Shown: positions 8,661-58,701 of the stretch, piece after piece
Position numbering within the stretch: the first letter of the stretch is position 1
Layout: each line of letters starts with the position of its first letter
Assembly: GCA_001800285.1 (NCBI GenBank)
Contig: MGVC01000013.1
Coordinates: 79,175 to 143,174 of the forward strand
DNA: 64,000 nucleotides
Origin: Elusimicrobia bacterium RIFOXYA2_FULL_39_19
GTDB lineage: Bacteria > Elusimicrobiota > Endomicrobiia > CG1-02-37-114 > XYA2-FULL-39-19
Direction of reading: 5' to 3'
Made by a program: the position numbers and the translations under genes
The notes under the pieces: model-generated
Seen by the model: the letters and a program-made list of their open reading frames with translations, nothing else
What the model was told of the DNA's origin: nothing
Databases searched by the model: none

Positions 8661-9887
8661 TTAACCTTTGCTCATTTGGTTTGTCAATTCAAACATCGGA
8701 AGGAACAGGGCCAGTACCATTGATCCGATGACCCCTCCCATAAATACTATGATTAACGGCTCAATCATGCTGGTCATGCCCTTAACAGCATCATCTACTT
8801 CTCTGTCATAAAAAGATGATATTTTAGTTAACATGATATCTAAGGTTCCCGTTTCTTCTCCAACTGAAATCATTTGTATAACCATTGGCGGAAAAATATT
8901 GCTTCTTTTTAAAGGTTCAGTAATTCTTTCCCCTTCACGAATTGATTCCCTGGCACTAAGGATTGCATTCTCAATTACCATATTACCGCTTGTTTTAGCT
9001 ACTGTTTCGAGTGCTTGTAATATAGGAACGCCTGATTTTACAAGTGTACCTAAAGTGCTTGTAAATTTAGCTATACTCATTTTCTTAATCATAAGACCGA
9101 ATACAGGTATTTTTAATTTAAATTCATCTACTTTCAATCTGAATTTAGGAAAACGTTTTATTGCTTGCTTAAAGCCTATGAATCCCAAAATTGGAAGAAT
9201 AATTAATGCAATTATGTTATTCTGCAAAAAAGCACTAAGGGCAAGCATGATTCTGGTAGGTAAAGGCAGTTTTACGCCAATTTCTGAAAATATAGCAGAA
9301 AACCTTGGAATAACACCTATCAACATAAATGCTGACGCTCCGACAGCAATAAATGCTACAACCGTGGGATACATCATGGCGCCCTTAATCTTTCCTTTTA
9401 ATTCTTCAGACGATTCAAGATATCCTGAAAGCCTGTCTAAAATAATATCTAAAATACCTCCGATTTCACCGGCTTTTACCATTGAAATATAAAGTTCGCT
9501 AAAGGCTAGAGGATGTTTTTTCATTGCATCAGCAATAGAAATACCGGATTCTATGTCTTCGCGGATTTTTGAAATAACCTTCTTAAAATTAACATTTTCA
9601 GCCTGTTCTTCGAGAATACTTAATCCTTGAACTATAGGCACTCCTGAAGTTACAAGTGTTGACAACTGTCTTGAAAATAAAGTTAATTCTTTTGAAGGAA
9701 TGCTTTTTCCGAAAGGGAGCATATTCATTAAAGCATCAAAACCGCCGGCTTTTTTTTCGTTTATTTCAAGAACCACAAAGCGCTGAGCACGCAATTTATC
9801 CATTGCAACACGTAAATCTGGTGATTCCATGGTTCCTGTAGAGATATTTCCGGAAGGTGCTTTTATTTTATAACTGAATTGTGCCAT
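8661..9887 (-). CDS. pilC: Type IV pilus inner-membrane platform protein PilC (GspF family).
   Basis: 408 aa. It shows the duplicated GspF-type architecture with three TM segments. Confidence 0.85.
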   Translation of the reverse strand: MAQFSYKIKAPSGNISTGTMESPDLRVAMDKLRAQRFVVLEINEKKAGGFDALMNMLPFGKSIPSKELTLFSRQLSTLVTSGVPIVQGLSILEEQAENVNFKKVISKIREDIESGISIADAMKKHPLAFSELYISMVKAGEIGGILDIILDRLSGYLESSEELKGKIKGAMMYPTVVAFIAVGASAFMLIGVIPRFSAIFSEIGVKLPLPTRIMLALSAFLQNNIIALIILPILGFIGFKQAIKRFPKFRLKVDEFKLKIPVFGLMIKKMSIAKFTSTLGTLVKSGVPILQALETVAKTSGNMVIENAILSARESIREGERITEPLKRSNIFPPMVIQMISVGEETGTLDIMLTKISSFYDREVDDAVKGMTSMIEPLIIVFMGGVIGSMVLALFLPMFELTNQMSKG

Positions 9888-9904
9888 ATTTAAAGCCTCT
9901 TAGT

Positions 9905-10999
9905 TTAATATTTTGGAACTGAAGTATTTTCTTTTTGAATTAATCTCTTTAAATCTTCCATGTCTGAAGTATGCATTAATGCTTCCTGATAGGTAATTTG
10001 TCTTTTCAAATATAAATTTGCCAAGCACATATTCATTGTCTGCATACCGAATTTTCCACCGGTTTGCATAGCTAATGCAATTTGTTCTGTTTTTAAATCT
10101 CTAATCAAATTTCTGATTCCCGGGGTAACTATTAAAACTTCACAGCCTAAGCACCTGCCGGTTCCGGAAGCATGAGGTATTAATATTTGAGAAAAAACAG
10201 CCTGCAACGTAAAAGATAGCTGTGAACGAACCTGGGCCTGTTGATGCGGAGGAAACACATCTACCATACGGTTTATTGAAGATGCTGCGTCAGTTGTATG
10301 TAATGTTGCGAAAACGAGGTGGCCTGTTTCTGCAATAGTTATTGCTGCCTGAATAGTTTCAAGATCACGCATTTCGCCTACAAGTATTATGTCAGGATCC
10401 TGCCTTAAAACGTATTTTAATGCCAATGGAAATGAATTTGTGTCTGTTCCCACTTCTCTCTGATTTACTACTGATTTTTTGTGTAAATGAATATATTCGA
10501 TTGGGTCTTCAATTGTCAGAATATGTGATTGGTTGTGTTCGTTAAGAAAATCTATCATTGAAGCAAGAGTTGTGGATTTACCGCTTCCGGTGGGTCCAGT
10601 TACTAAAATAAGTCCTTTAGGAATTTTCATTACTTCATAAGCTATGGGAGGAAGCCCTAATTCTTCAAAGTTAGGTATTTTATTTGATATTGAACGGAAA
10701 GCAGCACCGATAGATCCTCTCTGTCTGTATACATTCATCCTGACTCTTCCAACACCTTTAATACCAAAGGATAAATCCAATTCATTGTTTGCTTCGAATT
10801 TTTCTTTTTGAGTATCAGTTAAAAGCGAATAAATCAACCGCTGACTTATGTCGGAGGTCATTTTTTCATACTGAGTAGGTATTAATTCGCCGTCTACACG
10901 TAACATAGGCGGCAATCCTGTTGTAATATGTAAATCGCTGGCATTTTTTTCTACCATTAGCAGGAGCAAATCTTGCATATTTACTATTCCGCTGGACAT
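9905..10999 (-). CDS. pilT: Twitching-motility retraction ATPase PilT.
   Basis: 364 aa. Walker A motif GPTGSGKSTT is present. The size and motifs match PilT/PilU rather than PilB. Confidence 0.85.
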   Translation of the reverse strand: MSSGIVNMQDLLLLMVEKNASDLHITTGLPPMLRVDGELIPTQYEKMTSDISQRLIYSLLTDTQKEKFEANNELDLSFGIKGVGRVRMNVYRQRGSIGAAFRSISNKIPNFEELGLPPIAYEVMKIPKGLILVTGPTGSGKSTTLASMIDFLNEHNQSHILTIEDPIEYIHLHKKSVVNQREVGTDTNSFPLALKYVLRQDPDIILVGEMRDLETIQAAITIAETGHLVFATLHTTDAASSINRMVDVFPPHQQAQVRSQLSFTLQAVFSQILIPHASGTGRCLGCEVLIVTPGIRNLIRDLKTEQIALAMQTGGKFGMQTMNMCLANLYLKRQITYQEALMHTSDMEDLKRLIQKENTSVPKY

Positions 11000-42498: not shown

Positions 42499-43167
42499 TT
42501 ATCTATGAAATTTACTTTTTTTAATTACTTTTAATGCTTCTTCAGGAGTGTCAACAAGTTTATATATCAACAAATCGTCTTTTGATATACATTCTTCTTC
42601 CAAAACCTTACTTTCCAGCCACTTCACCAGGTCTTTCCAGTAGTCTTTTCCAACGAGTATTACAGGAAAAGGGTCAATACGTTCAGTCTGAACAAGTGTA
42701 ATAGCCTCAAAAAATTCATCAAGTGTTCCGAATCCGCCAGGCAGAACTATAAAAGCTTTTGCATACTTTGCAAACATTACTTTCCTTACAAAAAAATATC
42801 TAAATTCCAGCATTATGTTTATATACGGATTTGGTTTCTGCTCCATGGGCAAAAGTATGTTCAGCCCAACGGATTTTCCGGCTGCTTCCATAGCACCCTT
42901 ATTAGCTGCTTCCATAATTCCAGGGCCGCCGCCAGTAATTACTGCATAGCCGGCCTTTGACAGAAGATATGCTGTTTTCTCGGCTGTTTTATAGTATTTA
43001 TTATCTGTTTTTAATCTGGCAGAACCAAATACACACACAGCTTTACCTAACTTGGTAAGCATTTCAAAACCTTCTACAAATTCTGCCATTATTCTAAATA
43101 TTCTCCAGGTATCTTCTTGAGAAAAATCATCTTTTTCGTAATGGTTAAACCTTCTGAAATAAGGCAT
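42499..43167 (-). CDS. LOG-family protein (cytokinin riboside 5'-monophosphate phosphoribohydrolase-like).
   Basis: 222 aa. The motifs GGGPGIMEAAN and PGGFGTLDE are present. Confidence 0.75.
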   Translation of the reverse strand: MPYFRRFNHYEKDDFSQEDTWRIFRIMAEFVEGFEMLTKLGKAVCVFGSARLKTDNKYYKTAEKTAYLLSKAGYAVITGGGPGIMEAANKGAMEAAGKSVGLNILLPMEQKPNPYINIMLEFRYFFVRKVMFAKYAKAFIVLPGGFGTLDEFFEAITLVQTERIDPFPVILVGKDYWKDLVKWLESKVLEEECISKDDLLIYKLVDTPEEALKVIKKSKFHR

Positions 43168-43179
43168 TATTCCCCCAAT

Positions 43180-44589
43180 TTAAATTACTTTGCCTGCGTG
43201 TTCTGTTGGATATACTTCAAATATTTGCGGCTTCAATTTACGTTTATTGTAATAAAGTTTTTTAATCGCTTTAATGAATTTTGTTCTGGTTCTTTTGGTG
43301 ACAAGATTTATGGTACATCCGCCAAAACCTGCACCGGTTAAACGGGATCCGAAAGCACCGTTGTTTCCAGCTATTTTTACCATTTCATTTAGTTCCGGAC
43401 AGCTGACTTCATAATCCATATCCAAACTTAAATGAGATTGATTCATAAGCTCACCTAATTTTGCCATATCACATTTTTTAAACGCTTTCGTGCTTTCTTC
43501 TACTCTTTTCCATTCAAGTAATACATGTCTGCACCGGGATTTAATCTTATAATATCCGTCATCGGACCGAAACGGCTCTCCGTTTTTGAGTTTAAGGTGT
43601 TTGGCCCGCAACTCTTCTACGGTTAGTTCAAGGCTTTGTGCTATTTCAACTTCAGTACAGGTTTCTTTCTGAAATACTTTATTAATGATTTCTTCAATTT
43701 TATTCGTTATTTTTTCAAATTTCTTAAAACGCAGGTCACCTAATTTTGTTATGGCGTACTGGGTCCCGAATTTTTCTGTTATGTATTTATTTAACATCAA
43801 TACACCAAGCCTGCATTCAAAAACTCTCATATTATAAGATTGCCTTGCGTGACCTGATTTTGGAGCAGATACCATGCTGTTGCAGGCCACAAATATCATT
43901 TCTTCCGGTACAGGGATGGATTCTACTTCCATCGGATAAAAATCTATTTTTAATGCTTTGCCTCTGTTTCCAAGTAAAGAAATGGTCTGATCCATACCTC
44001 CGCCTTGTGTTCCTACATACCATTCTCCGTCAGCAAGTATTTTTGCAAACTCCAGGCCTTTAAATTTTATTCTGTTGATATCTGCAAAAGCTACTGCATT
44101 AGCAACGATTAAAGCAGAAGATGAGCTTACCCCGGAGTTTGACGGCACATTTCCAGAAATCATGGCATTATAGCCTGTGTATTTATTTTTTGGCTTTGAG
44201 TCTACTACAAGCTGAACGGCGGCTTTCAGGTAATTTCCCCAGTCACCCGTAGTGTAGGGGTGTATCGTTTTTTCAATAATAAAATTTCTGTCCTGGAAAT
44301 TTTTTGAATCAACATTTTTATAAATTACTTCATTGTCCTTTCTTGGTGCGGCTATTATCACAATATCTTTGTCAATGGTCATGGGAAATACAGGCATACC
44401 ATTATAATCTGTGTGTTCGCCGATTATGTTTATTCTGCCCGGAGCCCTGTAAATTGAAAACCTTCCCGCTTTTGGATAGACTTTTTTAAACTGCTTTATC
44501 AGCCCTTCATAACGATTGATTGTTTTTTTTAATTCCGGGTAATGCTTTCCGTAAATTTGTTCGATACGCTTTTTCAAATTAATTGTCAT
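43180..44589 (-). CDS. galK: Galactokinase (GHMP family).
   Basis: 469 aa. The signature GRINIIGEHTDYNG is present, together with GHMP motif 2. Confidence 0.8.
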   Translation of the reverse strand: MTINLKKRIEQIYGKHYPELKKTINRYEGLIKQFKKVYPKAGRFSIYRAPGRINIIGEHTDYNGMPVFPMTIDKDIVIIAAPRKDNEVIYKNVDSKNFQDRNFIIEKTIHPYTTGDWGNYLKAAVQLVVDSKPKNKYTGYNAMISGNVPSNSGVSSSSALIVANAVAFADINRIKFKGLEFAKILADGEWYVGTQGGGMDQTISLLGNRGKALKIDFYPMEVESIPVPEEMIFVACNSMVSAPKSGHARQSYNMRVFECRLGVLMLNKYITEKFGTQYAITKLGDLRFKKFEKITNKIEEIINKVFQKETCTEVEIAQSLELTVEELRAKHLKLKNGEPFRSDDGYYKIKSRCRHVLLEWKRVEESTKAFKKCDMAKLGELMNQSHLSLDMDYEVSCPELNEMVKIAGNNGAFGSRLTGAGFGGCTINLVTKRTRTKFIKAIKKLYYNKRKLKPQIFEVYPTEHAGKVI

Positions 44590-44603
44590 AGTAATCCACC
44601 AGT

Positions 44604-45530
44604 TTATTTTTTATATTCGCCTACAAAAAATTCGACAGTTGCTTTCAATCCTTCTTCCAAACTTGAACTGGGCTTAAAACCCAGTTTTTTTATTTTGCTA
44701 TTATCTGCAAGGGAATGTTTAATATCTCCAGGTCTTTCTTTTTCATGGATTATTTTTGACTTGGAACCGGTAAGTTTAATAATTTTTTCTGCCAGTTCAT
44801 TAATAGTGATTTTTGAGCCATAGGCAACATTGTAAACGCTGTCGCCTTTTTCCGACACCAGCACATTTGCCTGAACTACGTCTTTTACATAAACAAAATC
44901 CCTTGTCTGTTCTCCGTCACCATATATTAAAATGTCTTCATTTTTGATTGCTTTTAAAATAAATATTGGCACAGCCGCCGCATACTGGGATTTTGGATTC
45001 TGCCTCGGACCGAACACATTAAAATATCTGCAACACGCACTGGGCACCCCCCACTCTTTCCGGTAAAGGGACAAATAGTATTCACCGTCAAGTTTTGTAA
45101 CAGCATAAGGGCTTTTTGGCTCGGGAAGCATGGTTTCAACTTTCGGCATAACCGGATTATCACCATAAACCGCCGCAGATGAAGACAATACTATTTTCTT
45201 TACAGTTCCTGATTCTTTGGCAGCTTTTATCAGATTTATTGTTCCAATAGCGTTTAGGTTTATGCATTCAACGGGTTCAAAAATGCTTTCAGGTACGCTT
45301 ATCATAGCAGCCAGATGAAATACATAATCCACGCCTTTCATGGCATTTACGCAGGCCTTATAATCCGTTATGCTTTCTTCTATAAACTCTACACCAAACT
45401 TTTCTATGTTTTTTTTAAACCCTGACCTCAGGTTATCCATTACGGCTACTTTTGTATCCGCTTTGTTTGAAAAATGTTCTACAATATGACTCCCGATAAA
45501 TCCAGCACCGCCTGTTACAAGTACTTTCAT
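44604..45530 (-). CDS. galE: NAD-dependent sugar epimerase (UDP-hexose 4-epimerase, GalE-like).
   Basis: 308 aa. MKVLVTGGAGFIGSH Rossmann motif and YxxxK (YAVTK) are present. Confidence 0.7.
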   Translation of the reverse strand: MKVLVTGGAGFIGSHIVEHFSNKADTKVAVMDNLRSGFKKNIEKFGVEFIEESITDYKACVNAMKGVDYVFHLAAMISVPESIFEPVECINLNAIGTINLIKAAKESGTVKKIVLSSSAAVYGDNPVMPKVETMLPEPKSPYAVTKLDGEYYLSLYRKEWGVPSACCRYFNVFGPRQNPKSQYAAAVPIFILKAIKNEDILIYGDGEQTRDFVYVKDVVQANVLVSEKGDSVYNVAYGSKITINELAEKIIKLTGSKSKIIHEKERPGDIKHSLADNSKIKKLGFKPSSSLEEGLKATVEFFVGEYKK

Positions 45531-45546
45531 TGGTATTCTCCCTGTA

Positions 45547-46746
45547 TTATATTTTTTTTAATTCATCTCTTATAAATTTAAACTCTTCCAATGGTGCAGA
45601 GGTATCTTTAATTAAATGACAGTAATCTGCATAAGTAATTCTTTTGAAAGTTGACAAATCCGACGTGCTTCCCCTTCCGGCTGTTTCAACAGAAGCAGGA
45701 ACTATGATAAATTCGTTTTTTTCGCTTTCATTTTTTGCATTATAGGCATTCATATCTTTCGGAAATGTATCTGATTTCCATTTCCATTTTGGAAGCACAA
45801 ACACTCTGGCAATATCGCCTTTTCTTGCAAAGATCAGATAAAACGGCACAAACCGGTCAATTTCTTTCACTTGACGACTGTCGCATAATTCCATAATTTT
45901 ATTCACCAGCAAAGAAACTCTTTTTTTATCATTACCTTCTACCACAAAACCGGTAGCCGGGTATGACGGGTCAAATTCACTGACTCCGGTATTTCCAATA
46001 GCCACAGTTTTAATATTTTCTATAGGAAAGGTGCCGCTGAAAGCCTGCACGTGCCGGTGCTTATCTAATGAACCGGGCCTGTTAAAATACGGCCTGCAGA
46101 AATCAAACATAAAATTCAAATCAATAATATCTTCCATAAACTGCCGGTCCATAGACTGCAAACCGTGTTTTTTATAAGTTACCATAAGGTGGTTTTCTAC
46201 AATTGGCGCATGATTGCCGAATAAATAATAATCTCTCCAGAACCATACCTTTTTGTTTGTGTTAATGAAGGACTGGTAACAAATTGGGCAGCTGTCTACG
46301 TACTCATTTTTGTTGTGTACAACTGTAGAACTTCGTTTTCTTGCGGAATTGCAGTAAATCACAAAGTCTCCGGGTGACAGTACCTTTGACTGCACCTTAG
46401 CTAAGGATTCACCGTCAATCTTTTTTTCAATTATCTGGTGGCGTATAAGGGCGAACATTATATCCTGAAGGCTAAAATTATCTGCAATGATGCGGGTCTT
46501 AAACAAATCATCCTTTGTCCCCATCGCAGGGTTTCCGGCCATTTCAAGCGCAAATTCTAAATTATTTACAATATCGGATTCTTCTATTGTATCTTTCAGA
46601 GTAACAGTCAGCAGGTTATCCAGCGCTTTTGGTGCGCTCAGGTTAAATTCATTGAACTTCACAGATAACTTTTCAGCCAGCTGATAAATTTTAGAACCTG
46701 TCTTTATACCGTGTTTTGAAACAATTTCAATAATTTGTTTATCCAT
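45547..46746 (-). CDS. galT: Putative galactose-1-phosphate uridylyltransferase, family 2 (Gram-positive type).
   Basis: 399 aa. CPICYQ...WFWRDYYLFGNHAPIVENHLMVTYKKH resembles the type 2 GalT motifs CQLC...YAYFNEHSILLNAKH. The Leloir-pathway neighbours (galE-like, galK) support the call. Confidence 0.45.
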   Translation of the reverse strand: MDKQIIEIVSKHGIKTGSKIYQLAEKLSVKFNEFNLSAPKALDNLLTVTLKDTIEESDIVNNLEFALEMAGNPAMGTKDDLFKTRIIADNFSLQDIMFALIRHQIIEKKIDGESLAKVQSKVLSPGDFVIYCNSARKRSSTVVHNKNEYVDSCPICYQSFINTNKKVWFWRDYYLFGNHAPIVENHLMVTYKKHGLQSMDRQFMEDIIDLNFMFDFCRPYFNRPGSLDKHRHVQAFSGTFPIENIKTVAIGNTGVSEFDPSYPATGFVVEGNDKKRVSLLVNKIMELCDSRQVKEIDRFVPFYLIFARKGDIARVFVLPKWKWKSDTFPKDMNAYNAKNESEKNEFIIVPASVETAGRGSTSDLSTFKRITYADYCHLIKDTSAPLEEFKFIRDELKKI

Positions 46747-48734: not shown

Positions 48735-48763
48735 TTGATATACCCGCTAAAAATAAGTATAAT
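48735..48763 (+). promoter_or_regulatory. Near-consensus sigma-70 promoter, TTGATA-N17-TATAAT.
   Basis: Read directly. It lies about 30 nt upstream of the AAGGA RBS and the ATG at 48796. Confidence 0.5.
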
Positions 48764-48795
48764 TTAAGAAATAATTAATATATTTAAGGAAAAAT

Positions 48796-49842
48796 ATGAA
48801 ATACAAAGGCATTTTTAAAACATTTGATAACTCAAAAATCAGAACCTACCCGCTAAACAAAAGAAAAAGCAAGGTCTCCCTGGAATTTGCCGTTGACTGC
48901 AAACATTTAGCTAAACAAAAAATTACCCATCCCAACAAAGACATTGAAAAAATAGCATTAGGAGTAATAAAAGCCCGCAAACAAAACAAACCCGTCATAA
49001 TAATGTCAGGCGCACATCTGGTAAAAAATGGTTTATCACCCATTATTGTTGATTTGATGGAAAAAAGACTGATTACCCTATTTGCTACCAACGTTGCATC
49101 CTCTATTCACAGTTTTGAATTATCTCTCATAGGCCAGTCCAGTGAAAATGTAGCGAAAGGCCTGCCTAAAGGCGAATTCGGTATGGCGTTTGAAACCGGA
49201 ATGTATTTAAACCAGACACTTATTGAAGGGCTGAAAGCAGGTATTGGATTTGGTGAATCCATGGGCCGGCTTTATGGTGACAAAAAATTTAGAAAAAAAG
49301 TTATTGATAATGCTTTAAAAAATGAAAAGAATACCGATAACTACTATAAACCTTACGGCGCTTTCCGTTTTGCGGACAGCTGTATTTTTGCAAAAGCTTT
49401 TGAACTCAAAATCCCTGTTACTGTACACGCTTCTTTAGGCACTGATATAATTGACCAGCACAGAAACTTCAACGGCAGAGCCAAAGGTGAAACCAGCGGA
49501 AAAGACTTTCTCATTTTCGCTAACGAAATCACCAAACTTACCCATGGCGGTGTAATAATAAACATCGGCTCTGCGGTTATGGGCCCGGAAGTACTGCTTA
49601 AAGCGGTATCTATGGCGGCTAATACTGGCAAAGTTCCAAACAAAATAATCACTGCAGATTTTGACTTACGCCCTTTCGGTAATAATGCTGCTGATGAAAA
49701 AAAATATCCCTACTATTTTCGCGACCAGAAAAGCATAGTAAATAGAATACCGGAAAGTTACCACGGTACCGGCTACTACATACAGGGCAACCAGAAAGAA
49801 ACTGTCCCTTCCTTTTATAAGTACATAATCAGTCATTTCTGA
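48796..49842 (+). CDS. Deoxyhypusine-synthase-like (DHS/homospermidine-synthase fold) protein.
   Basis: 348 aa. Several segments align by eye to DHS: [27 protein letters not shown] against [43 protein letters not shown] against [27 protein letters not shown] against MIILGGGVVKH. A partial arginase-like SxDxD pattern (TADFDLRP) was considered and rejected. No search was run. Confidence 0.4.
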   Translation: [348 protein letters not shown]

Positions 49843-49945
49843 CACCCCCTCTGTTATACAATTATTGATTTTTCTACTGATTATTGCTTTAATAGTAGAC
49901 AAGTTTTAAAAAAACACAAAACTATACCAATCTTGAGGAGGAGCA

Positions 49946-51349
49946 ATGGCAAAAGAATATGCATTAAAAGTAAAAAAAATCAAAAAGGTAAACACACCAT
50001 TTAGAAAAATGGTAACACCGGAATTTCCCGTAAAACAGTCTGTAGCTATAATTGAAAAACTAAGAAAATACGAGCCCCGGTCTATGTCAGGCCAGCCGCT
50101 GGCACTGTGGGACCACGCAGACGGCATTAACGTGTTTGATAAATACGGCAATAAATGGCTGGACTGGAGCTCCGGCGTATTGGTAACCAACGCAGGCCAC
50201 TCTAACCCGGAAATAAAAAAAGCCATTATCAAACAGGTAAACAAAGGATTACTGCATAACTATTGTTTCCCGTCAGAACTAAGAGCTATATTAACTGAAA
50301 AAATAGCTAAATTAGCACCTGCACCGCTAAAAAAAGTATTTTTACTTACCACCGGAGCAGAAACCACTGAAGCTGCAGTAAAACTGGCAAGAACCTATGG
50401 GGCAAAAGAAGGCGGATCAGATAAAATAACCATAGTTTCTTTTTCCGGCGCATTTCACGGCAGAACCATGGGTGCCCAGATGATAGGTGGCTCACCGGAT
50501 TTGAAAAAATGGATAGTAAACCTTGACAAAGATATGGTACAGGCACCTTTCCCGTTTTGTTTCCGCTGCCCCTGGGGTAAAGACAAATATAACAACTGTG
50601 ATACAGAGTGTTTCGGCAAGTTTATAAATTTTCTGAAAGAAAAAAACATAGATCCTAAAAAGAATCTGGCGGGTGTAATATCTGAAACGTATCAGGGCGG
50701 CAATGCCATGTTTATGCCGAAAAAATTTGCCCAACTGTTAAGAAGTTTCTGTACTGAAAACAACGCTCTGCTAATATTTGACGAAGTACAGGCGGGATTT
50801 GGCAGAACAGGCAAAATGTTTGGCTTTCAGCACTATGACGTAGTGCCGGACATCACCTGCTGCGGTAAAGGCATATCAAGCTCACTGCCTATATCTGCTG
50901 TAATAGGCCGCGCTGACGTAATGGACATTTATGAACCAAACACCATGACCAGTACCCATACCGGCAACCCAGTATGTGCAGTAGCCGCCATTGCCAGCAT
51001 AGACTACATAGTAAAACACAAACTTACCCAGAACGCTGCAAAAGTAGGCAAATACCTTGAAAAAGAATTAATGAAAATTGCCGCTAAATATCCGTCCATT
51101 ATTGGGCACGTGTCCGGCAAAGGACTGGTTTACAGCTTACATATAGTAAAACCCGGCTCTAAAGAAACTAACGCAGACCTGGCACATGATATAGTAGGCA
51201 AATGTGTAGAAAAAGGATTGATGGTATTTGCACCTGTAGGGACGGGCAGCGCATCTTTTAAAATATCGCCCCCGTTAATTGCCACAGAAGCTTCCATAAA
51301 AGACGGCATACAAGCCGTGGATGAAGCCATTGCTGAATGCCTGGCCTAA
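49946..51349 (+). CDS. PLP-dependent class III aminotransferase (omega-amine:oxo-acid type).
   Basis: 467 aa. The motif DEVQAGFGRTGKMFG contains the PLP lysine, and SFSGAFHGRT is present. An unusual Cys4 insertion (FPFCFRCPWGKDKYNNCDTEC) is also present. A strong RBS (GGAGGAG) precedes the start. Confidence 0.8.
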   Translation: MAKEYALKVKKIKKVNTPFRKMVTPEFPVKQSVAIIEKLRKYEPRSMSGQPLALWDHADGINVFDKYGNKWLDWSSGVLVTNAGHSNPEIKKAIIKQVNKGLLHNYCFPSELRAILTEKIAKLAPAPLKKVFLLTTGAETTEAAVKLARTYGAKEGGSDKITIVSFSGAFHGRTMGAQMIGGSPDLKKWIVNLDKDMVQAPFPFCFRCPWGKDKYNNCDTECFGKFINFLKEKNIDPKKNLAGVISETYQGGNAMFMPKKFAQLLRSFCTENNALLIFDEVQAGFGRTGKMFGFQHYDVVPDITCCGKGISSSLPISAVIGRADVMDIYEPNTMTSTHTGNPVCAVAAIASIDYIVKHKLTQNAAKVGKYLEKELMKIAAKYPSIIGHVSGKGLVYSLHIVKPGSKETNADLAHDIVGKCVEKGLMVFAPVGTGSASFKISPPLIATEASIKDGIQAVDEAIAECLA

Positions 51350-51560
51350 GAATTGAAGCACCCGCCTTCGCAGGCGTGGATTCTAACTTTATTTTCATCG
51401 CAGCAAAAACCCTACGCTGAAATACCCGGAGCGGACTTAATCGCTATACATCCATGCCTTTACCGGGCAGGTATCCAGTATCATTTTATAAAAGGAAGAA
51501 ACTGGATAGACACGGATTTCCGCGAAGGGTGTTAAATACAAAATATAAGTAATAGCAACA

Positions 51561-51594
51561 AAAAAAGCGCCCTTTAAAAGGCGCTTTTTTTTGA
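51561..51594. terminator. Bidirectional rho-independent terminator.
   Basis: The sequence is AAAAAAA-GCGCC-CTTTAAAA-GGCGC-TTTTTTTTT. It sits between the convergent aminotransferase (+) and tkt (-) genes. Confidence 0.7.
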
Positions 51595-51613: not shown

Positions 51614-53647
51614 TTATTTCTTTTTTGCGGCAACTATTTTTCTGGCTCTTTCCACAAAAAACTCAGCTGTTAAACCAAATATTTTCATCAGTTCCCATGG
51701 CTGGCCGGAATCTCCGAAGGTATCGTTTATGCCTATCATGTCCATTAAAAGAGGCGTTTTGTATTTTTTGTTGCGTGCAATAGCACCCGCTATTATATTG
51801 CCCAATCCGCCTGCCTGATGCTCTTCTGCGGTAACAATAGCACCTGTTTCTTCTGCGGCTTTTAGTATAGCCTTTACATCAAGCGGCTTTACTGTATGAA
51901 CATTAAGGACTCTGGCTTCTATTTTAAACTGTTCCTTTAATATCCAGGCTGCGCGCATAGCTTCAGGCACCATAGGTCCGCAGGCTATTATAGTAAGCTG
52001 TTCTTTCTCTGATTTATATTTTTCTGCCAGTTTAATTTCAAAGGCATCTACAAATTTCTCCGTAACTTTTCTAAAACGGATTACATTGGCCTTGCCGAAA
52101 ACAAACGGGGTGTCTTTTTTGGTGGCTATGGGTGTGGCTTCCCTGGCATACCTGATGCATGACGGGCCTTTTACTATTGCCATGGCATGGGTAGCTTTTT
52201 CTGTTTCAATGGAATCACAAGGAACGGTTAAGGTCATTTTGGGAAGGTACGCCATAAGAGCTATTTCTTCCAGTGCCTGGTGCGTGGCGCCATCCTGCCC
52301 TACGGATATGCCCGCATGGGCTGATGCTATTTTTACGTTAAGGTCGTTATAACAGAGAGTTGTTCTTATCTGGTCCCAGTTTCTGCCGGTTACAAATACA
52401 CCGTAGGAACCAATAAATGCTGTCTTGCCTTCTTTTGCCAGGCCTGCGGCTACTACCGTCATATTCTGTTCTGCAATACCCATGCTGAAAAAACGGTTTT
52501 TTCTTTCGGGATGGTTCTTATAGAAATCATCCATTTTGATTGATGAAGTAATGTCTGACCCGTGGGCTACTACATTTTTATCTTCCCCTATTATTTCCAG
52601 GGCTTTGCCAAAACCGAATCTGGTAGGTTCCATATCCACTTTCATCATTGGATCTGCGTTCCACCAGTAATTCTTTTTAAACTTCGGCAGTTTGGCTTCA
52701 ACTTTTTTATTTACGCCTTTCTGGTAATTTTCTACACTTGCAAAGATGGCATCCAGCCTTTCTTTTGGAAATTTGTCTGCTATGCCTATGCTTTTCAGCG
52801 CGCTTTCTAAAGATTCGTCGCCGCATCTGCCGTGTTTCGGAGGCACACCATGATAACCTGCTACGTTTTCCGCGTAACAAATACCTTTGCCTTTTACCGT
52901 TTCAAATATTATCACGGTGGGCTGGCCTTTGACGGTTTTTGCTTGTTCAAAAGCTTCTACAATTTTTTGCATATCATGGCCGTTAGTTACTATTACATTC
53001 CAGCCAAATGATTTATATTTATCTTCAAGCGGTTCTACGTTCATTACATCTGCTACTTTGCCGTCTATCTGCAGTTTGTTGCGATCAAGGATGCCTACCA
53101 GGTTATCAAGTTTGTAATGAGCTGCAGACATTACTGATTCCCAAATAGAACCTTCCTGCTGTTCGCCGTCACCCATGATGCAGTAAACCCTGTAATCCTG
53201 TTTTTCCAGTTTTGCGTTTATGGCGCTTCCTACGGCAACACCTAAACCCTGGCCCAGGGACCCGCTGGATAATTCAATTCCAGGCAGCTTGAATCTATTG
53301 GGATGGCCTTCAAAACCTGACCATAATCTTCTAAGTTTTGCTGTTTCTTCTATATTGTAATAACCTGCCGCGCCCAATGCCACGTACAATGCCGGAGCTT
53401 TGTGGCCGGTAGACCAGAAAGTTCTGTCTCTGTCTTCCCATATTGGATTTTCCGGATCGTGCTTCATAATTTTAAGGTATAAAGCTGCCGTGATATCCAT
53501 AATGGACATGGTACCGCCGGTGTGACCTGATTTTGCCAGAGTGATACCTATCATGTTCCACGCACGCATTTCTTTTGATTTTTCAATCAGTTCGCTGATT
53601 GAGTAGTCTTTTCTTACTTCACTCGTCTTTGAGTTGATTAATGACAT
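51614..53647 (-). CDS. tkt: Transketolase (single-chain).
   Basis: 677 aa. TPP-binding motifs GHTGGTMS and GDGEQQEG are present, with a C-terminal Tkt domain. Confidence 0.85.
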   Translation of the reverse strand: MSLINSKTSEVRKDYSISELIEKSKEMRAWNMIGITLAKSGHTGGTMSIMDITAALYLKIMKHDPENPIWEDRDRTFWSTGHKAPALYVALGAAGYYNIEETAKLRRLWSGFEGHPNRFKLPGIELSSGSLGQGLGVAVGSAINAKLEKQDYRVYCIMGDGEQQEGSIWESVMSAAHYKLDNLVGILDRNKLQIDGKVADVMNVEPLEDKYKSFGWNVIVTNGHDMQKIVEAFEQAKTVKGQPTVIIFETVKGKGICYAENVAGYHGVPPKHGRCGDESLESALKSIGIADKFPKERLDAIFASVENYQKGVNKKVEAKLPKFKKNYWWNADPMMKVDMEPTRFGFGKALEIIGEDKNVVAHGSDITSSIKMDDFYKNHPERKNRFFSMGIAEQNMTVVAAGLAKEGKTAFIGSYGVFVTGRNWDQIRTTLCYNDLNVKIASAHAGISVGQDGATHQALEEIALMAYLPKMTLTVPCDSIETEKATHAMAIVKGPSCIRYAREATPIATKKDTPFVFGKANVIRFRKVTEKFVDAFEIKLAEKYKSEKEQLTIIACGPMVPEAMRAAWILKEQFKIEARVLNVHTVKPLDVKAILKAAEETGAIVTAEEHQAGGLGNIIAGAIARNKKYKTPLLMDMIGINDTFGDSGQPWELMKIFGLTAEFFVERARKIVAAKKK

Positions 53648-53704
53648 TGACTGTGTTCTCCTATTTAATTTAATGTTTTAAGCAGCCGTTGCGGCCTGCG
53701 TTAT

Positions 53705-54097
53705 TTATGCTTTTTCTATGGATACTTTTGCGCCTGATTTAACTTTTAAAAAATCTTTCGGGTTGCCTAAAAGTTTCCCAACTACGTTTACGGCACTGGC
53801 CGGCCTTATTTCATCACCCGTGCTGGCTGGCGTTTTACCGAAAAAAATGCAGAATGCGTTTCCCGGGGGCCAATAGGCTATATCACCGCAATTTACTACT
53901 TCACAGCCGTTTTCTTCACCTACATGTACTGGAATAGAAAAATAGATTTCTTCCCCCCAGGTGTTTCCTTTGGCATTTATGGCTAAAGCTTCATAAATTG
54001 CCTGCGCAGTTTTTGAATCATTCAATTCTGCAAGCATAGATACTTCACCAGCAGTGATTTTGATTTTGTTTCCAATTGTTATCACAGATTGGACCAA
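53705..54097 (-). CDS. Small conserved hypothetical protein, tentatively cyclophilin-like fold (PF04126-like).
   Basis: 130 aa, beta-rich, with no signal peptide. Motifs GDIAYWPPGNAFCIFFG. The assignment is from memory of Thermotoga-type cyclophilin-like proteins and is weak. Confidence 0.3.
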   Translation of the reverse strand: MVQSVITIGNKIKITAGEVSMLAELNDSKTAQAIYEALAINAKGNTWGEEIYFSIPVHVGEENGCEVVNCGDIAYWPPGNAFCIFFGKTPASTGDEIRPASAVNVVGKLLGNPKDFLKVKSGAKVSIEKA

Positions 54098-54999
54098 GCT
54101 TCTCTAAGCACTCTTTTTGAGTTTGCAATAAGCACTTCAGAGTTTTCACCCGGCAGAGGTTTCACTTCAAAACTTACTATGGGCAGGTTATCTGTTTTTT
54201 TGCCCAGGTAGCCGATATCAAAAAGGCATTTTAAAAATTCCGTAAGTTCTTTTACGCCATTTTCACCGGTAGATATACCAAATCTGGGGTGCTGATCACC
54301 ATAGCCTGTCATAGCTTTATCCTTCATTATACAGTTACCCATGTGGATGTGAACAAGGTAATCTTTTACAGCGGTCAATGACTGCTTTGGTGTTTCGTTA
54401 AGTAACGGCATATGGCTTAAATCTACCATCAGTCCGAAATTTTTGCAGGTTTTTCTTACTTCTTTGGCTATTTTCACAGCTTCATCTGAGGGGCCAATAA
54501 GAGCTTTTTTGTCTATGTCACGGTCAAAAGTTTCAAGCACAAAATTAAGGTTTTTTGTCTGGGCATAATTTGAAAGTTCTACAAGAGATTCTACCAAGGC
54601 TTTTTTGGCTTCTTCTCTTTTTTCAGGGCCCGGGTCTGCTCCGCTAAGGATGGCTACAGCTTTTGCGCCGAGTTCTGAAGCTTCATTTATTCTTTCTTTT
54701 AAAAATTCCACTACTTTCTTTCTTTCTGCCTGGTCCAGGGAATTTACGTTATATTTATTTACAAGCAAAGTGGGCTGGGCTCCGTAAGCCACGGTTAAAT
54801 GGCTCTGCTCCAGCAATTCCTTGGCTTTTTTTCTTACTTCTGCGTCTTTCATCCAGGAAATTTCAATGGCTGAGAAAAAATCATCTTTGCAGATTTTTTC
54901 CAGTGTTTCAAGGATTGGGCCTTCACCCTTCATTGTTTCAGGGTAAATCATGAAGTGGATTATGCCTACTTTCATGTAATCGTGAATTGAATCTTTCAT
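54082..54999 (-). CDS. Sugar-phosphate isomerase/epimerase of the xylose-isomerase-like TIM-barrel family (ketose 3-epimerase / UlaE-like).
   Basis: 305 aa. TIM-barrel-like periodicity, with acidic and His residues in the expected positions (...LETFDRD..., ...VDLSHMP...). Confidence 0.45.
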   Translation of the reverse strand: MKDSIHDYMKVGIIHFMIYPETMKGEGPILETLEKICKDDFFSAIEISWMKDAEVRKKAKELLEQSHLTVAYGAQPTLLVNKYNVNSLDQAERKKVVEFLKERINEASELGAKAVAILSGADPGPEKREEAKKALVESLVELSNYAQTKNLNFVLETFDRDIDKKALIGPSDEAVKIAKEVRKTCKNFGLMVDLSHMPLLNETPKQSLTAVKDYLVHIHMGNCIMKDKAMTGYGDQHPRFGISTGENGVKELTEFLKCLFDIGYLGKKTDNLPIVSFEVKPLPGENSEVLIANSKRVLREAWSNL

Positions 55000-55018
55000 T
55001 TACTTCCTCCTGTTTTGG

Positions 55019-55525
55019 TTATTTTGAGTATGTTAATGCCAGGTTAAACTCTTCATTGCTTACTACTTTTACTTCTGTTCTGCCTGTATCTTCATTAAAA
55101 TAATCTACTGCTCGGTGTAAATACTCTAACGAATGACTGTTTTCTATTTCATCGTTAATTATGGTTACTGCACCTAAAACATAAAACAAAATGCCTTCTG
55201 ACTCAGCTCTGGTTATTCTGCTTCTTTCTGCAGGGTCATATGTACCGCTTTCATTATATCTGTTATAAGCATAAGAACCCATAAGTATGCCTATAAACCA
55301 GCCACCGCCGTGTTCCCGATATAAACACATCTGCTCCAGCGCTCTGGGTGATTTACTGGCGGTTAAAGCTTTGAATTCTTTGATAGTGTATTCTGTACCG
55401 TCAACACTGACGCGGTAAGTTTTAAAAAACTTTGGCGCTATTACATAGGCCTTGTTTGTTTCTGTCTGGGCTATTACTGTAAACATTGAAAGTAAAACGG
55501 TTAAAAGCAGTGATTTCTTTAACAT
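55019..55525 (-). CDS. Secreted hypothetical protein.
   Basis: 168 aa. N-terminal signal peptide MLKKSLLLTVLLSMFTVIAQT. No recognisable motif. Confidence 0.4.
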   Translation of the reverse strand: MLKKSLLLTVLLSMFTVIAQTETNKAYVIAPKFFKTYRVSVDGTEYTIKEFKALTASKSPRALEQMCLYREHGGGWFIGILMGSYAYNRYNESGTYDPAERSRITRAESEGILFYVLGAVTIINDEIENSHSLEYLHRAVDYFNEDTGRTEVKVVSNEEFNLALTYSK

Positions 55526-55526
55526 C

Positions 55527-56699
55527 TTATCCTTCTGTATGAAGTTTTATGTGTTTTTTAAATATCTCATAATGTTCTGCTGAATTATTTTTTAACACTT
55601 CATAACAGCCGTCAAAGTATTTATCTACCGTTAATATTGAACCGTAGGTGACATGCAGTGCCTGCCTTAAATCACCGTTGCCGGTTTTTGAATCCATTAA
55701 ATTGAATATTTCTTCTCCTTTAAGTTTGGAAATATCAGGAATATTTGCAACGTTGGTGGTAAGTTCATAGCTGGCGCGGTCTTTTTCAAACTGTTTCATG
55801 GAAATAGCGTATATTTCCTTGAAAAGGTCCGGATTATGTTTGGCTACAAGGCGTAATTCCTCCAGATAGTAGGTACCGGCAGATTTTAAGTGATAGTTTC
55901 CCTTTGTGTGCTTTGAAAGAATAGGATAAATAGAAAATTTGTCACTTCCTGAGTGCACGCATAAACGGACACCGAAGTCATTTAATATTTTAAGTATTTC
56001 TTTCAGGTAGGTTTCAAACTCATCCAGTTTTTTATCGTTTTTCTTCTGCAGGTAATAATCTATGGCTTTTTCAAAGTACCCGGGAAACCTGGGGGCCAGC
56101 TCATCAACGCGGATATTACGTTTTTTAAGTTCTTCCAGCGCAAAGCTAACTTCATCAAATTTTGTGGTGTATTCGGTTTCATCAAAAGACACTTCTACGC
56201 TGAAATCTGCGCCTTTTTTCAGCTCTTCGGTTAGTTTTATAAGTTTGGTAAGTTGTTCAACCGCTTCCTTAATACTTTTTTTAAGCTCATTTGAAACATC
56301 ATAAGTAAAATGTGTACAACCACCGGCTACCGCCATTTTAATATGCTCTTCTGTTTTCAAATGGTCGCCATCTGCGGACCAGGGAAGCGTAAGATTGGCA
56401 GTATAAGAGGAATAGGTACCCAGGTCAATTACGTTTTCATAGGTGCGGTTGGTTCTCTCCAGTTCTCTGGCAGATTGCTGGGCCAATACTACCTGCACGC
56501 CAAGTTCTTTGGCGGCTTTTGCCTGCATAACATTGCCAAGGCCGTAAGCGCACCGGTACCCGGTACCAAAGACAAAACCTTTTCTGATAACAGACGGGTT
56601 GGTGTTTTTATGGTTTTTGCGCAATTCTACAGCTTCTTCGTGTGTAACAGGAACCTTATTGCTGGTTTTCAAGTTCTTCTCCCAGTAAATTAAAATCAC
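55527..56699 (-). CDS. GatZ/KbaZ/UxaE-family protein (tagatose-6-phosphate 4-epimerase or tagaturonate epimerase-like).
   Basis: 390 aa. The family assignment is from overall similarity recalled from GatZ/UxaE-type proteins (...HSGSDKFSIYPIL...). The start is uncertain because the ORF overlaps the upstream gene by 44 bp. Confidence 0.35.
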   Translation of the reverse strand: MILIYWEKNLKTSNKVPVTHEEAVELRKNHKNTNPSVIRKGFVFGTGYRCAYGLGNVMQAKAAKELGVQVVLAQQSARELERTNRTYENVIDLGTYSSYTANLTLPWSADGDHLKTEEHIKMAVAGGCTHFTYDVSNELKKSIKEAVEQLTKLIKLTEELKKGADFSVEVSFDETEYTTKFDEVSFALEELKKRNIRVDELAPRFPGYFEKAIDYYLQKKNDKKLDEFETYLKEILKILNDFGVRLCVHSGSDKFSIYPILSKHTKGNYHLKSAGTYYLEELRLVAKHNPDLFKEIYAISMKQFEKDRASYELTTNVANIPDISKLKGEEIFNLMDSKTGNGDLRQALHVTYGSILTVDKYFDGCYEVLKNNSAEHYEIFKKHIKLHTEG

Positions 56700-58701
56700 C
56701 TATAAAACCGGTTCTTATGGCATTTTTTTCTGCTTCAGTTGCCGGAAAGGCATCTACCACTTTTGCAAACAAGGTCTGCTGCGCAAACGCATGGCTTGCC
56801 AGTTTATCTGCGGTAATACCTTTTGAACCGTAAGGCTGTTTATAAATGTCAAAGAAAATCAAAACCTGCTTTAGCGCTTCATCTACTTCATATGCCTGGG
56901 CAAATTCTTCTGCAATAATTGAACTGTAAAGCTGTTCAATCATGGTTTTATTTACTTTTTTTTCTACATTTTTTCTGTTAATTTTCATTTCTTTCCAGAG
57001 TTCTATGTTGAGCGCGCAATCCGGGAAGTGGCCCTGGGAGAACATGCCAAGCAAACCTTCAACGTGAGGAAATCTGTTGCCGTACGGAGGCCTCATGGAT
57101 GCCTGCAAGTCGCCGGTTTCCCATTCCTGCACACCCTGTTTTTTCATTATGGGTGATTTTTTAAGGGCTGTCATTATCTTGTGTGACCTTTTGGATATGG
57201 CTTCCGCTATGGTGCAAATGGCCAGGTCCTGCGGAAAAAGTTTGCCTTCGTGGTTTTCATATTCTGCCGGAGTTATTTCTTCCGGAAGTATCAGGCCGGC
57301 CTCTTTGGCAAGTTTTCTTGCTTCAGGGGCATCTAAAGTACCGTTTTTCTTATTATCAATTTTCATTACTTCTTCAGCTTTTGCGGTGTTGCCCTGTTTT
57401 TTATAAACATCGGCAAGTTTCTGTATGGCATACCATCTTAATGCGGCTTCTATACGGCCGCCCATTTTGGTGATAATAGAATGGGTGATTAACAGGCCTT
57501 TCTTGCGGGCTTTGGCGTGGCCTCTTAACTGGCAGAAAAATGAATACAGGCCGTCTGTCATAAAACCGGCTACGGTAACATTGTTATTAGCACCTTCTGC
57601 CATAACCTGTTCCATGGCACTGCCTGAATCCCCTTCGGCTAAATCAAAATTGCCTTTTTTTACCTGTTCTACCATCAATTTATCTACATCCCCGTAAACG
57701 GATTTTGCTGAGCCGTCAACTTTGTAAAATACGTGGGACTGGCCTTTTCTGGCTTTTATTTCTTCCGGGGTTAAGGTATCTTCAAGGAATAAACCGGAAT
57801 CATATTTCATACATTCATCATTGAATTCTTTGTGAAGGGTTAAAATATCGCTTTTAAGTTTTTCCGGCTGATTGTAAGTTCTGGGGTTTACCTGAAAACT
57901 GATTTTGCCTTTTTCTGTAAGTAAAAATACCGCTCTCTGCGCTAAACGGGCTTTATAACCGGCTATTTTTGTGGCACCGCGTACCAGTTCTTCGCGGGAT
58001 AGCTTTCCTTTATTATCAAGGGCAAACTGTCTTTTCATGGCCTGAAGCACATCATCTTCTGCTAAAGCCAAGCGGGCCAGTGTAGGGTTCATCATAACCA
58101 GGTCTGCACCCCAAAGGATACGCGCTTCTATAATGCCTAAACCGTAATCTACACCTACTATCATATTAGCTTTTTCTTTGATTTTTCTAAGGTTGGATTT
58201 TTTGCCGAATTTGGCCCAGAATTTAATCCAGGCTTTTACGGAGGTGGCTTCAATTTCTTTGGATTTTTCTGCCAACAGGCCTTTACCGGCCGAGGCCATA
58301 ATTCTGCCCATACGGGTTTTTTCCTTATTAAGCAGGCCGGACATAACATTTTTATGTTTTGCTTCAAGTTTTTTAAGGAGTTTGTAAAGGTTTCTTACTT
58401 CTGGTTTGAGCACTTTGTCCGGAACGATATTGTTTTTATGCCTTTCTTCGTTTTGCAAGTTAAGAGTAAGTTCGTAAGAGCCATCAAGAGCCATGGTAAC
58501 CCAGATAAGGAAAAGAAATACTTTCTCTTTTTCTTCTTCTGTATAACCGGATATTTCGGAAACTATTGTTTCCTGGATTTCTTTGATTCTTGCAGGAAAA
58601 TCCTTGGGGTTGGTAAAACACGTTACATTGTCAAATGCCTGTGCCTGTGAAAACAAATCACCTTTTGCCTGGTCAACAATTTTTCTTACTTTTGGATCCA
58701 T
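56656..58701 (-). CDS. Long transaldolase-family protein with about 190-aa N-terminal and about 200-aa C-terminal extensions.
   Basis: The core aligns by eye to TalB. IVGVDYGLG...GADLVMMNPTLARLA matches VVADTGD...DATTNPSLILNA. GKISFQVNPRTYNQ matches GRISTEVDARLSYD. VFYKVDGS matches ILIKLAST, the Schiff-base Lys region. ...IITKMGGRIEAALRWY matches ISPFVGRILDWY. Strong RBS AAAGGAGAACG. Confidence 0.5.
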   Translation of the reverse strand: MDPKVRKIVDQAKGDLFSQAQAFDNVTCFTNPKDFPARIKEIQETIVSEISGYTEEEKEKVFLFLIWVTMALDGSYELTLNLQNEERHKNNIVPDKVLKPEVRNLYKLLKKLEAKHKNVMSGLLNKEKTRMGRIMASAGKGLLAEKSKEIEATSVKAWIKFWAKFGKKSNLRKIKEKANMIVGVDYGLGIIEARILWGADLVMMNPTLARLALAEDDVLQAMKRQFALDNKGKLSREELVRGATKIAGYKARLAQRAVFLLTEKGKISFQVNPRTYNQPEKLKSDILTLHKEFNDECMKYDSGLFLEDTLTPEEIKARKGQSHVFYKVDGSAKSVYGDVDKLMVEQVKKGNFDLAEGDSGSAMEQVMAEGANNNVTVAGFMTDGLYSFFCQLRGHAKARKKGLLITHSIITKMGGRIEAALRWYAIQKLADVYKKQGNTAKAEEVMKIDNKKNGTLDAPEARKLAKEAGLILPEEITPAEYENHEGKLFPQDLAICTIAEAISKRSHKIMTALKKSPIMKKQGVQEWETGDLQASMRPPYGNRFPHVEGLLGMFSQGHFPDCALNIELWKEMKINRKNVEKKVNKTMIEQLYSSIIAEEFAQAYEVDEALKQVLIFFDIYKQPYGSKGITADKLASHAFAQQTLFAKVVDAFPATEAEKNAIRTGFIGDFNLLGEELENQQ

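Follow-up and report, generated by a model that had tools for sequence, protein, structure and literature searches.

Two neighbouring genes on the plus strand, at positions 48,735 to 51,594 of a 64,000-nucleotide stretch of contig MGVC01000013.1 from Elusimicrobia bacterium RIFOXYA2_FULL_39_19 (the whole stretch, 64 kb long, is referred to as the window), raise the question of whether they encode a shared pathway. An earlier note on this DNA read the first, gene A, as a deoxyhypusine synthase (DHS)- or homospermidine synthase-like enzyme and the second, gene B, as a class III aminotransferase, and suggested that the two form a polyamine-remodelling or aminobutyl-transfer route. On balance, and with fair confidence, we favour another answer: gene A encodes a sugar-pathway enzyme of the GSU2086 family, gene B is unrelated to it, and there is no polyamine route. 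For the window itself the outcome is negative, with nothing that points to a novel route of polyamine remodelling or aminobutyl transfer. The locus holds a catalogued but uncharacterised family member and an ordinary aminotransferase, and its interest lies in the heptose-type context of the family, not in the gene pair.

Gene A encodes a member of the GSU2086 family

The product of gene A is deposited for Elusimicrobia bacterium RIFOXYA2_FULL_39_19 as a hypothetical protein (100% identity) and belongs to the large uncharacterised GSU2086 family, scoring 316.6 bits against the NCBIfam model NF052581 ("GSU2086 family protein", cut-off 250) over model positions 2-300 of 301. The family includes 2,393 clusters at 50% identity with E ≤0.001, and 532 with E ≤1e-30. 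Literature searches on GSU2086, bacterial DHS-like proteins, heptose together with DHS, and the AgrE structure found no characterisation of it.

The fold had been assigned by eye to the DHS type, and correctly so: the best 50 Foldseek matches of A are solely DHS, LOR/SDH, ArgZ and AgrE (E 7e-7 to 3e-4, TM 0.40-0.55), and the protein has the DHS-type Rossmann-like fold. Membership of the DHS or homospermidine synthase family did not hold. The Pfam scan gave no match of A to PF01916 at E up to 1, and the identity to DHS and homospermidine synthase is 10-14%. Alignment of the family with hhalign to human DHS alone (a query sequence identical to 1rlz_A) or to a DHS alignment is collinear and non-significant, with a probability of 0.4-1.3%. 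A home-made DHS hidden Markov model, a shallow profile whose homologues come only from vertebrates and plants, likewise gave non-significant matches to family members.

The nearest relative by sequence is the LOR/SDH-type ornithine cyclodeaminase domain, which is C-terminal in AgrE/Alr4995 and ArgZ/Sll1336 and is also represented by the Methanococcus maripaludis structure 3c2q. A profile (A2) built from an alignment of 104 diverse family members, 29-51% identical to A, matches this domain in AgrE (E 2.6e-7), ArgZ (E 3.6e-7) and 3c2q (E 8.5e-5), far better than it matches DHS (E 0.02-0.11). Alignment covers the nucleotide-binding domain's first strand-helix-strand, the cofactor-binding part, and ends in a shared, invariant A-x-H-D-x-E...G motif, in which AgaIHDfElalvG stands against AIAVHDIEQNMMG and the window protein reads H105-S106-F107-E108. 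The similarity extends over only about 70 residues, and the window protein lies far under both family thresholds: its match to PF21570 (ArgZ-like_C_2nd) is at chance level (E 0.1, 12.7 bits against a threshold of 27), and it scores 12 bits against TIGR00300, for which the cut-off is 410.8. An additional N-terminal LOR/SDH domain was not detected in A. Among 38 close members, sub-threshold matches to PF21570 occur in 14 and to PF01916 in eight (best PF01916 match 4.2e-5). By these profile comparisons A is homologous to both DHS and the cyclodeaminase domain, closer to the latter and belonging to neither. DHS and the AgrE/ArgZ cyclodeaminase domain are two branches of one structural clade, and the GSU2086 family is the third.

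Residues that are nearly invariant family-wide are G72, H74, K77, G79, H105, D106, E108, G113, E117, G126, F128, G129, G151 and G153 in the N-terminal half and H211, G215, G231, D237, F238, G252, G258-S259-A260, P264, E265, K269, N276, D290 and R309 in the C-terminal half; the family D106 is replaced by Ser in the window protein, and an insertion at residues 164-188 is carried by its subfamily. The three invariant His (74, 105 and 211), several carboxylates (E108, E117, D237 and D290), K269 and R309 indicate that A is an active enzyme. A catalytic lysine of the DHS kind could not be recognised. The sole candidate, K312 (RDQK), in the region equivalent to the C-terminal part of DHS, is invariant in the close subfamily; among 103 diverse family members it is not conserved, and no family-wide lysine equivalent of DHS K329 was recognised. 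The alignment to DHS is unreliable at that region (hhalign non-significant) and fixed no residue of A as the equivalent of K329 or H288. Glycine-rich nucleotide-binding motifs occur in the same order in A and DHS with low confidence, and the collinear pairs GAHxxKNG/GYTSNLISSG, TNGA/TTAGG, GG/GGG and TAxFD/TAQEFD come from non-significant alignments only.

The family is linked to ADP-heptose enzymes by gene order and domain fusion

The neighbourhoods of A homologues were surveyed at 80 loci from species-representative genomes, mostly of Planctomycetota and Bacteroidales, with proteins about 50% identical to A. Neighbouring genes were clustered, annotated with Pfam and NCBIfam and counted, the annotation covering part of the lesser clusters. 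The best-conserved annotated clusters are a PfkB kinase-HAD phosphatase fusion, an AGE-family epimerase/isomerase, a SIS protein and a HEAT-repeat protein. The PfkB-HAD fusion, of about 634 aa, is present at 49 of the 67 loci with enough flank, usually starting 9-30 bp past A, and its PfkB part best matches RfaE domain I (heptose-7-phosphate kinase). The AGE-family gene ends 9-25 bp ahead of A at 31 of 72 loci, and a GmhA-like SIS protein is encoded near A homologues at six. At least one of PfkB(-HAD), AGE and SIS lies within 5 kb of A at 44 of 58 loci. Individual arrangements include GH94-SIS-PfkB-A and A-SIS, a PfkB (509 aa)-A-SIS order within a glycan-biosynthesis cluster on plasmid pDCAR1 of Solidesulfovibrio carbinolicus, and HAD-A-hypothetical-SIS behind a sugar ATP-binding cassette (ABC) transporter on a Chloroflexota plasmid. 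A lar-type cluster was not prominent among the conserved neighbours, in a survey that included no search aimed at lar genes. The polyamine, eIF5A or EF-P context of DHS was not seen around A. The founding member, GSU2086 of Geobacter, is flanked by hldE on one side and gmhA on the other, and its transposon mutants behave like hldE and gmhA mutants (PMC5585712).

Domain fusions tell the same story by other means. SIS, PfkB, HAD or CTP_transf_like domains are carried by 16 of 20 scanned long family representatives. A cytidylyltransferase-like domain is found in seven of the 20, in two cases together with an ARMT1-type phosphatase; HAD is found in five, SIS in three and PfkB in two, one of which is a PfkB-HAD-A protein of 1021 aa that is counted under HAD too. 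The set also holds three tandem A-A proteins, one protein with GH38 and one with nothing recognisable. When 10 of the fusions were searched against NCBIfam as well, every one passed NF052581; their partner domains have gmhA, rfaE_dom_I and rfaE_dom_II as best matches, two of the rfaE_dom_II matches lying above the equivalog cut-off of 181.5 bits (203 and 199). Through gene order and domain fusion, two independent kinds of evidence, the A family is thus tied to each of the four enzymes that take sedoheptulose-7-phosphate to ADP-heptose. Operons and repeated fusions, spread over several phyla, join the family to a GmhA-like SIS isomerase, an RfaE-domain-I-like PfkB kinase, phosphatases of the HAD or ARMT1 type and an RfaE-domain-II-like adenylyltransferase. 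The partners are sugar-phosphate enzymes, not the arginine/ornithine enzymes that would accompany a cyclodeaminase, nor polyamine enzymes.

The tandem proteins (P0362, P0374 and P0377) are whole-domain duplications of about 580-690 aa. The active form of DHS is an oligomer whose active sites lie at subunit interfaces, and as fused dimers the A-A proteins may be informative on the quaternary structure of the GSU2086 family.

Proposed role of the gene A product

Heptose-1-phosphate and ADP-heptose are building blocks of the lipopolysaccharide core and potent innate-immune agonists, and the GSU2086 family, large and named but without a function, is tied to their enzymes by gene order and repeated fusion. 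We propose that A would bind a dinucleotide, either an NAD-type cofactor or an ADP-sugar itself in the NAD pocket, and would convert a heptose-type sugar phosphate or ADP-heptose in a redox-neutral reaction such as an epimerisation or isomerisation. The chemistry would involve transient abstraction and return of a hydride, a suggestion drawn from the analogy with the hydride cycles of DHS and the cyclodeaminase. DHS uses a bound dinucleotide in a cycle in which spermidine is oxidised and the imine is then reduced; in the cyclodeaminase, likewise with a bound dinucleotide, ornithine is oxidised, cyclised and then reduced.

A would supply the single activity that its partners do not cover. The only canonical step of the ADP-heptose route unrepresented among the GmhA, RfaE-I, GmhB/HAD and RfaE-II partners is that of HldD (ADP-L-glycero-D-manno-heptose 6-epimerase, TIGR02197), which is why an HldD-type step is suggested for A. 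The reaction of HldD, too, proceeds through a transient oxidation, for which the enzyme keeps a nicotinamide cofactor tightly bound. The likeness is one of function only, as HldD has a short-chain dehydrogenase/reductase (SDR) fold unrelated to the DHS-like fold of A. This specific epimerase or isomerase mechanism is tentative, and we consider it rather unlikely to be right as it stands. If it were true, a pathway thought complete would gain an extra enzyme, for example an epimerase or isomerase on a DHS/cyclodeaminase scaffold, and a fold familiar from amine chemistry would be extended to carbohydrate chemistry.

A bolder version can be formulated, to which we give very little credence. In PMC13524815, which cites Desguin 2025, members of TIGR00300 are described as using a nickel-pincer adenine dinucleotide. 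The GSU2086 family might by analogy be a new hydride-shuttling class in which a nickel-pincer or modified dinucleotide is held by the three invariant His; its substrates for epimerisation or isomerisation would be heptose phosphates or ADP-heptose, and it would serve as a non-orthologous replacement of HldD, an overlooked fifth enzyme of the heptose pathway.

Gene B encodes an ordinary class III enzyme

Gene B was rightly recognised as encoding a class III aminotransferase: its product matches PF00202 from end to end (E 3.7e-87, 293 bits, model positions 9-403 of 403), carries the pyridoxal phosphate (PLP) motifs DEVQAGFGRTG and CGKG (the PLP-lysine), and is deposited as "4-aminobutyrate aminotransferase" in RIFOXYA2_FULL_39_19. 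It is an intact PLP enzyme of the class III, 4-aminobutyrate (GABA) aminotransferase-like type. Its closest solved relatives are a Thermococcales broad-specificity amino-acid racemase (9wrf, E 4e-65), Pyrococcus (7vno) and bacterial GABA aminotransferases and isoleucine 2-epimerase (E 4e-65 to 1e-52 overall), and it shares the PLP-lysine and the DEVQ motif with these enzymes and with GabT/PuuE. It reaches no NCBIfam cut-off among the 25 models listed of 69 matched, the best being PRK08117 (319 bits, cut-off 574), with the putrescine aminotransferase model PRK11522 at 221 bits (cut-off 612). With no equivalog threshold reached, family models assign B to no specific equivalog (GabT, PatA, ArgD, Dat, BioA and others) and to no substrate, and its chemistry may even be that of a racemase rather than an aminotransferase.

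Orthologues of B with 55-79% identity are found in Firestonebacteria, Clostridia and others. In a small sample of six neighbourhoods, glutamate dehydrogenase adjoins the B orthologue in three (L089, L092 and the P0250 context), a gene for a Gfo/Idh/MocA oxidoreductase is no more than 5 kb away in four, and a permease of the Mem_trans family (PF03547) adjoins it in one. As a side observation, the recurrence of the B orthologue with glutamate dehydrogenase and Gfo/Idh/MocA suggests an uncharacterised oxidoreductase-aminotransferase-glutamate dehydrogenase module.

The adjacency of A and B is confined to one lineage

The test that the earlier note had set, co-location of the two genes in other genomes, largely failed. 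A class III aminotransferase occurs within ±8 kb of A at none of the 80 loci and an A homologue near B orthologues in none of the six contexts. A lies near B only in syntenic sister Elusimicrobia of the window, in which A is 66-67% identical and the whole neighbourhood is syntenic. In these relatives (L081-L083, about 9046..9969, and L085, 3557..3862) a Mem_trans permease gene stands between the two and starts 2 nt past A. Co-location in the sisters represents one evolutionary event and gives no independent support for a coupling of A and B, and we infer that their adjacency is a lineage-specific juxtaposition.

As the B-Mem_trans pair also occurs without A, the events are most simply read as the arrival of a permease-aminotransferase unit behind A, followed by loss of the permease in the window. 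The opposite polarity is a possible, less simple reading. The spacer between A and B shows one match to the interior of the relatives' Mem_trans gene, an A+T-rich 29-nt segment of 86% identity (E 3.6e-4) that overlaps the "second promoter" discussed below; the match hints at a deletion remnant, and no protein-level trace of Mem_trans was found in the gap.

Weighing the readings

Several points weigh against a heptose-type sugar-pathway role for A that is independent of B. In Geobacter, polarity on gmhA could account for the phenotype seen by Tn-seq. In the window's subfamily the partner kinase and isomerase score under the RfaE-I and GmhA equivalog cut-offs and no RfaE-II domain or nucleotidyltransferase lies near A, so the sugar may not be a heptose; several A contexts look catabolic (GH32, GH94, ABC transporter). 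The 64-kb window itself contains no SIS, PfkB(-HAD), HAD, AGE or RfaE-II homologue, which makes the heptose-type link in this genome a family extrapolation only. NAD binding is predicted from the fold and from a low-confidence motif correspondence, and the literature yielded no biochemical data for any family member. Finally, A, the permease where present, and B are packed tightly on the same strand in the Elusimicrobia lineage, and a local functional link between A and B in Elusimicrobia is possible.

One alternative is a lineage-specific amino-sugar route, in which A would oxidise a hydroxyl group of a sugar or sugar phosphate to a carbonyl and B would transaminate it, with A replacing the Gfo/Idh/MocA oxidoreductase of other B contexts. 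The sugar-phosphate context of the A family, the Gfo/Idh/MocA and glutamate dehydrogenase genes near B orthologues, the probably shared transcription unit and the abundance of sugar genes in the surrounding window are all in line with it. We nevertheless regard it as unlikely: few B contexts were sampled, the A-B pairing is absent beyond one lineage, most sugar aminotransferases belong to the DegT/DnrJ type and not to class III, and the cofactor cycles of DHS and cyclodeaminase are redox-neutral and release no carbonyl product.

Quite unlikely, in our view, is an amino-acid reading in which A, as a stand-alone LOR/SDH-type enzyme, would cyclodeaminate or deaminate ornithine, lysine or some related diamino acid, B (ornithine-, acetylornithine- or GABA-type) would draw on the same pool, and the permease of the relatives would import the substrate. 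It would account for the significant similarity to the cyclodeaminase domain of AgrE, ArgZ and 3c2q, HDxE motif included, for the weak matches of A to TIGR00300 and PF21570, for the place of B within the GABA/ornithine aminotransferase clade, for the glutamate dehydrogenase genes adjoining B orthologues and for the tight A-permease-B packing in relatives. Yet the similarity is confined to the cofactor-binding part, the TIGR00300 score is far from its cut-off, Pfam reported no N-terminal LOR/SDH domain family for A, and the proteins that accompany A or are fused to it across the family are of the GmhA, RfaE and HAD types, not amino-acid enzymes.

The least credible is the original polyamine model, with A as an NAD-dependent aminobutyl transferase and B interconverting a diamine or polyamine with its aminoaldehyde in a polyamine-remodelling or protein-lysine-modifying route: it can appeal to two co-directional, probably co-transcribed genes and to sub-threshold hits of B to putrescine aminotransferase in NCBIfam and the PDB, and it is opposed by the missing PF01916 match, the better fit of the family profile to the cyclodeaminase domain, the lack of family-wide conservation of K312, the absence of A-aminotransferase pairs from the 80 A loci and the six B contexts, the low PRK11522 score and partners and fusions of A that are heptose-type sugar-phosphate enzymes.

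Organisation of the transcription unit

In an open reading frame (ORF) scan of the window, the remaining plus-strand ORFs of at least 110 aa are all nested in longer minus-strand ORFs, which makes A and B the sole plus-strand coding unit of the 64 kb (Table 1); the earlier note had described two plus-strand genes in minus-strand surroundings for 35 kb. The strand bias is extreme, with all gene-sized ORFs of the 64 kb other than A and B on the minus strand, and fits one replichore arm.

Table 1. Features of the A-B locus, with positions in the window
Feature	Position	Strand	Remarks
Sigma-70-like promoter TTGATA-N17-TATAAT	48735..48763	+	Predicted; in 99-bp divergent intergenic region
Ribosome-binding site AAGGA of gene A	48786..48790	+	Read from the sequence; ends 5 nt ahead of ATG 48796
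Gene A	48796..49842	+	348 aa; GSU2086-family protein (NF052581), DHS / LOR-SDH-type Rossmann-like fold
A-B spacer	49843..49945	+	103 nt; weak candidate promoter 49865..49893
Ribosome-binding site GAGGAGGAG of gene B	49935..49943	+	Read from the sequence
Gene B	49946..51349	+	467 aa; class III (GABA-aminotransferase-like) PLP enzyme
3' untranslated stretch	51350..51559	+	210 nt; G+C-richer, moderately structured
Bidirectional intrinsic-terminator-like hairpin	51560..51591	both strands	Predicted fold; common to B and the convergent transketolase gene
Transketolase gene	51614..53647	minus	Convergent with B; shares the hairpin 51560..51591

The anatomy of the unit, with a near-consensus promoter upstream and a bidirectional hairpin downstream, is as previously described. 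The promoter was the top-scoring promoter-like site of the region in a promoter scan, with an 11/12 consensus match. Such a match is by itself not rare in A+T-rich DNA of this kind, as the two strands of the window hold six sites of at least 11/12 against 3.7 ± 1.9 in first-order Markov simulations. What makes the site credible is its placement, in the divergent spacer and 33 nt before the ATG with AAGGA downstream. TATAAT is retained at the equivalent place in the syntenic relative L082.

Terminator scan and folding of the 103-nt spacer revealed neither a terminator nor significant structure (z -1.0), and the ribosome-binding site of B, GAGGAGG, is strong, which together make co-transcription likely; A and B are probably a small co-directional unit, predicted from the sequence to be co-transcribed. 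The second promoter (TTGATT-N17-TTTAAT) that the earlier note placed in this spacer is present in its letters; it has no A at position 2 of the -10 element and was not reported by the promoter scan. The description of the terminator as a "strong GC hairpin" is borne out as to the hairpin, its folding on both strands (-15.6 and -17.9 kcal/mol) and the U runs on both sides; "strong" is generous for a G+C core of just 5 bp. The hairpin does not follow B immediately but begins 210 nt past its stop, and an equivalent is present in L082.

The stretch between the stop of B and the hairpin has 43% G+C against 36% in the window and is missing from the syntenic relative. Its folding beats that of shuffled sequences (z -2.77, 0/200), it is overlapped by a 60-aa ORF starting with TTG, and it is not repeated at any other place in the window and matches no Rfam family; an Rfam scan of the whole window, with permissive settings on the locus, gave nothing beyond sub-threshold terminator-like matches. 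Possible identities are an element of the 3' untranslated region, a small RNA and the remains of a gene.

Neighbouring genes in the window

The divergent neighbours (42499..46746, minus strand) encode a LOG/TIGR00730 protein, a galactokinase that passes TIGR00131, a GalE/TviC-like nucleoside diphosphate-sugar epimerase and a 399-aa DUF4922 protein, which in a relative has a faint GDP-galactose-phosphorylase-like match. They form a Leloir-like sugar-nucleotide set with the nucleotidyl-transfer step unassigned. The SDR gene among them (44604..45530, 3 kb upstream) was considered as HldD and rejected, being a generic GalE/TviC-like epimerase with 137 bits against the TIGR02197 cut-off of 275.

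The convergent cluster (51614..58701, minus strand) begins with the transketolase, a cyclophilin-like protein and a xylose-isomerase-like TIM barrel protein (IolO/psicose-epimerase-like), followed by a 168-aa protein without a family, a UxaE-like epimerase and a 681-aa protein without a Pfam or NCBIfam match. The cluster is kept in the sister genomes, and on S. carbinolicus pDCAR1 (L094) split transketolase genes are likewise found close to the A homologue.

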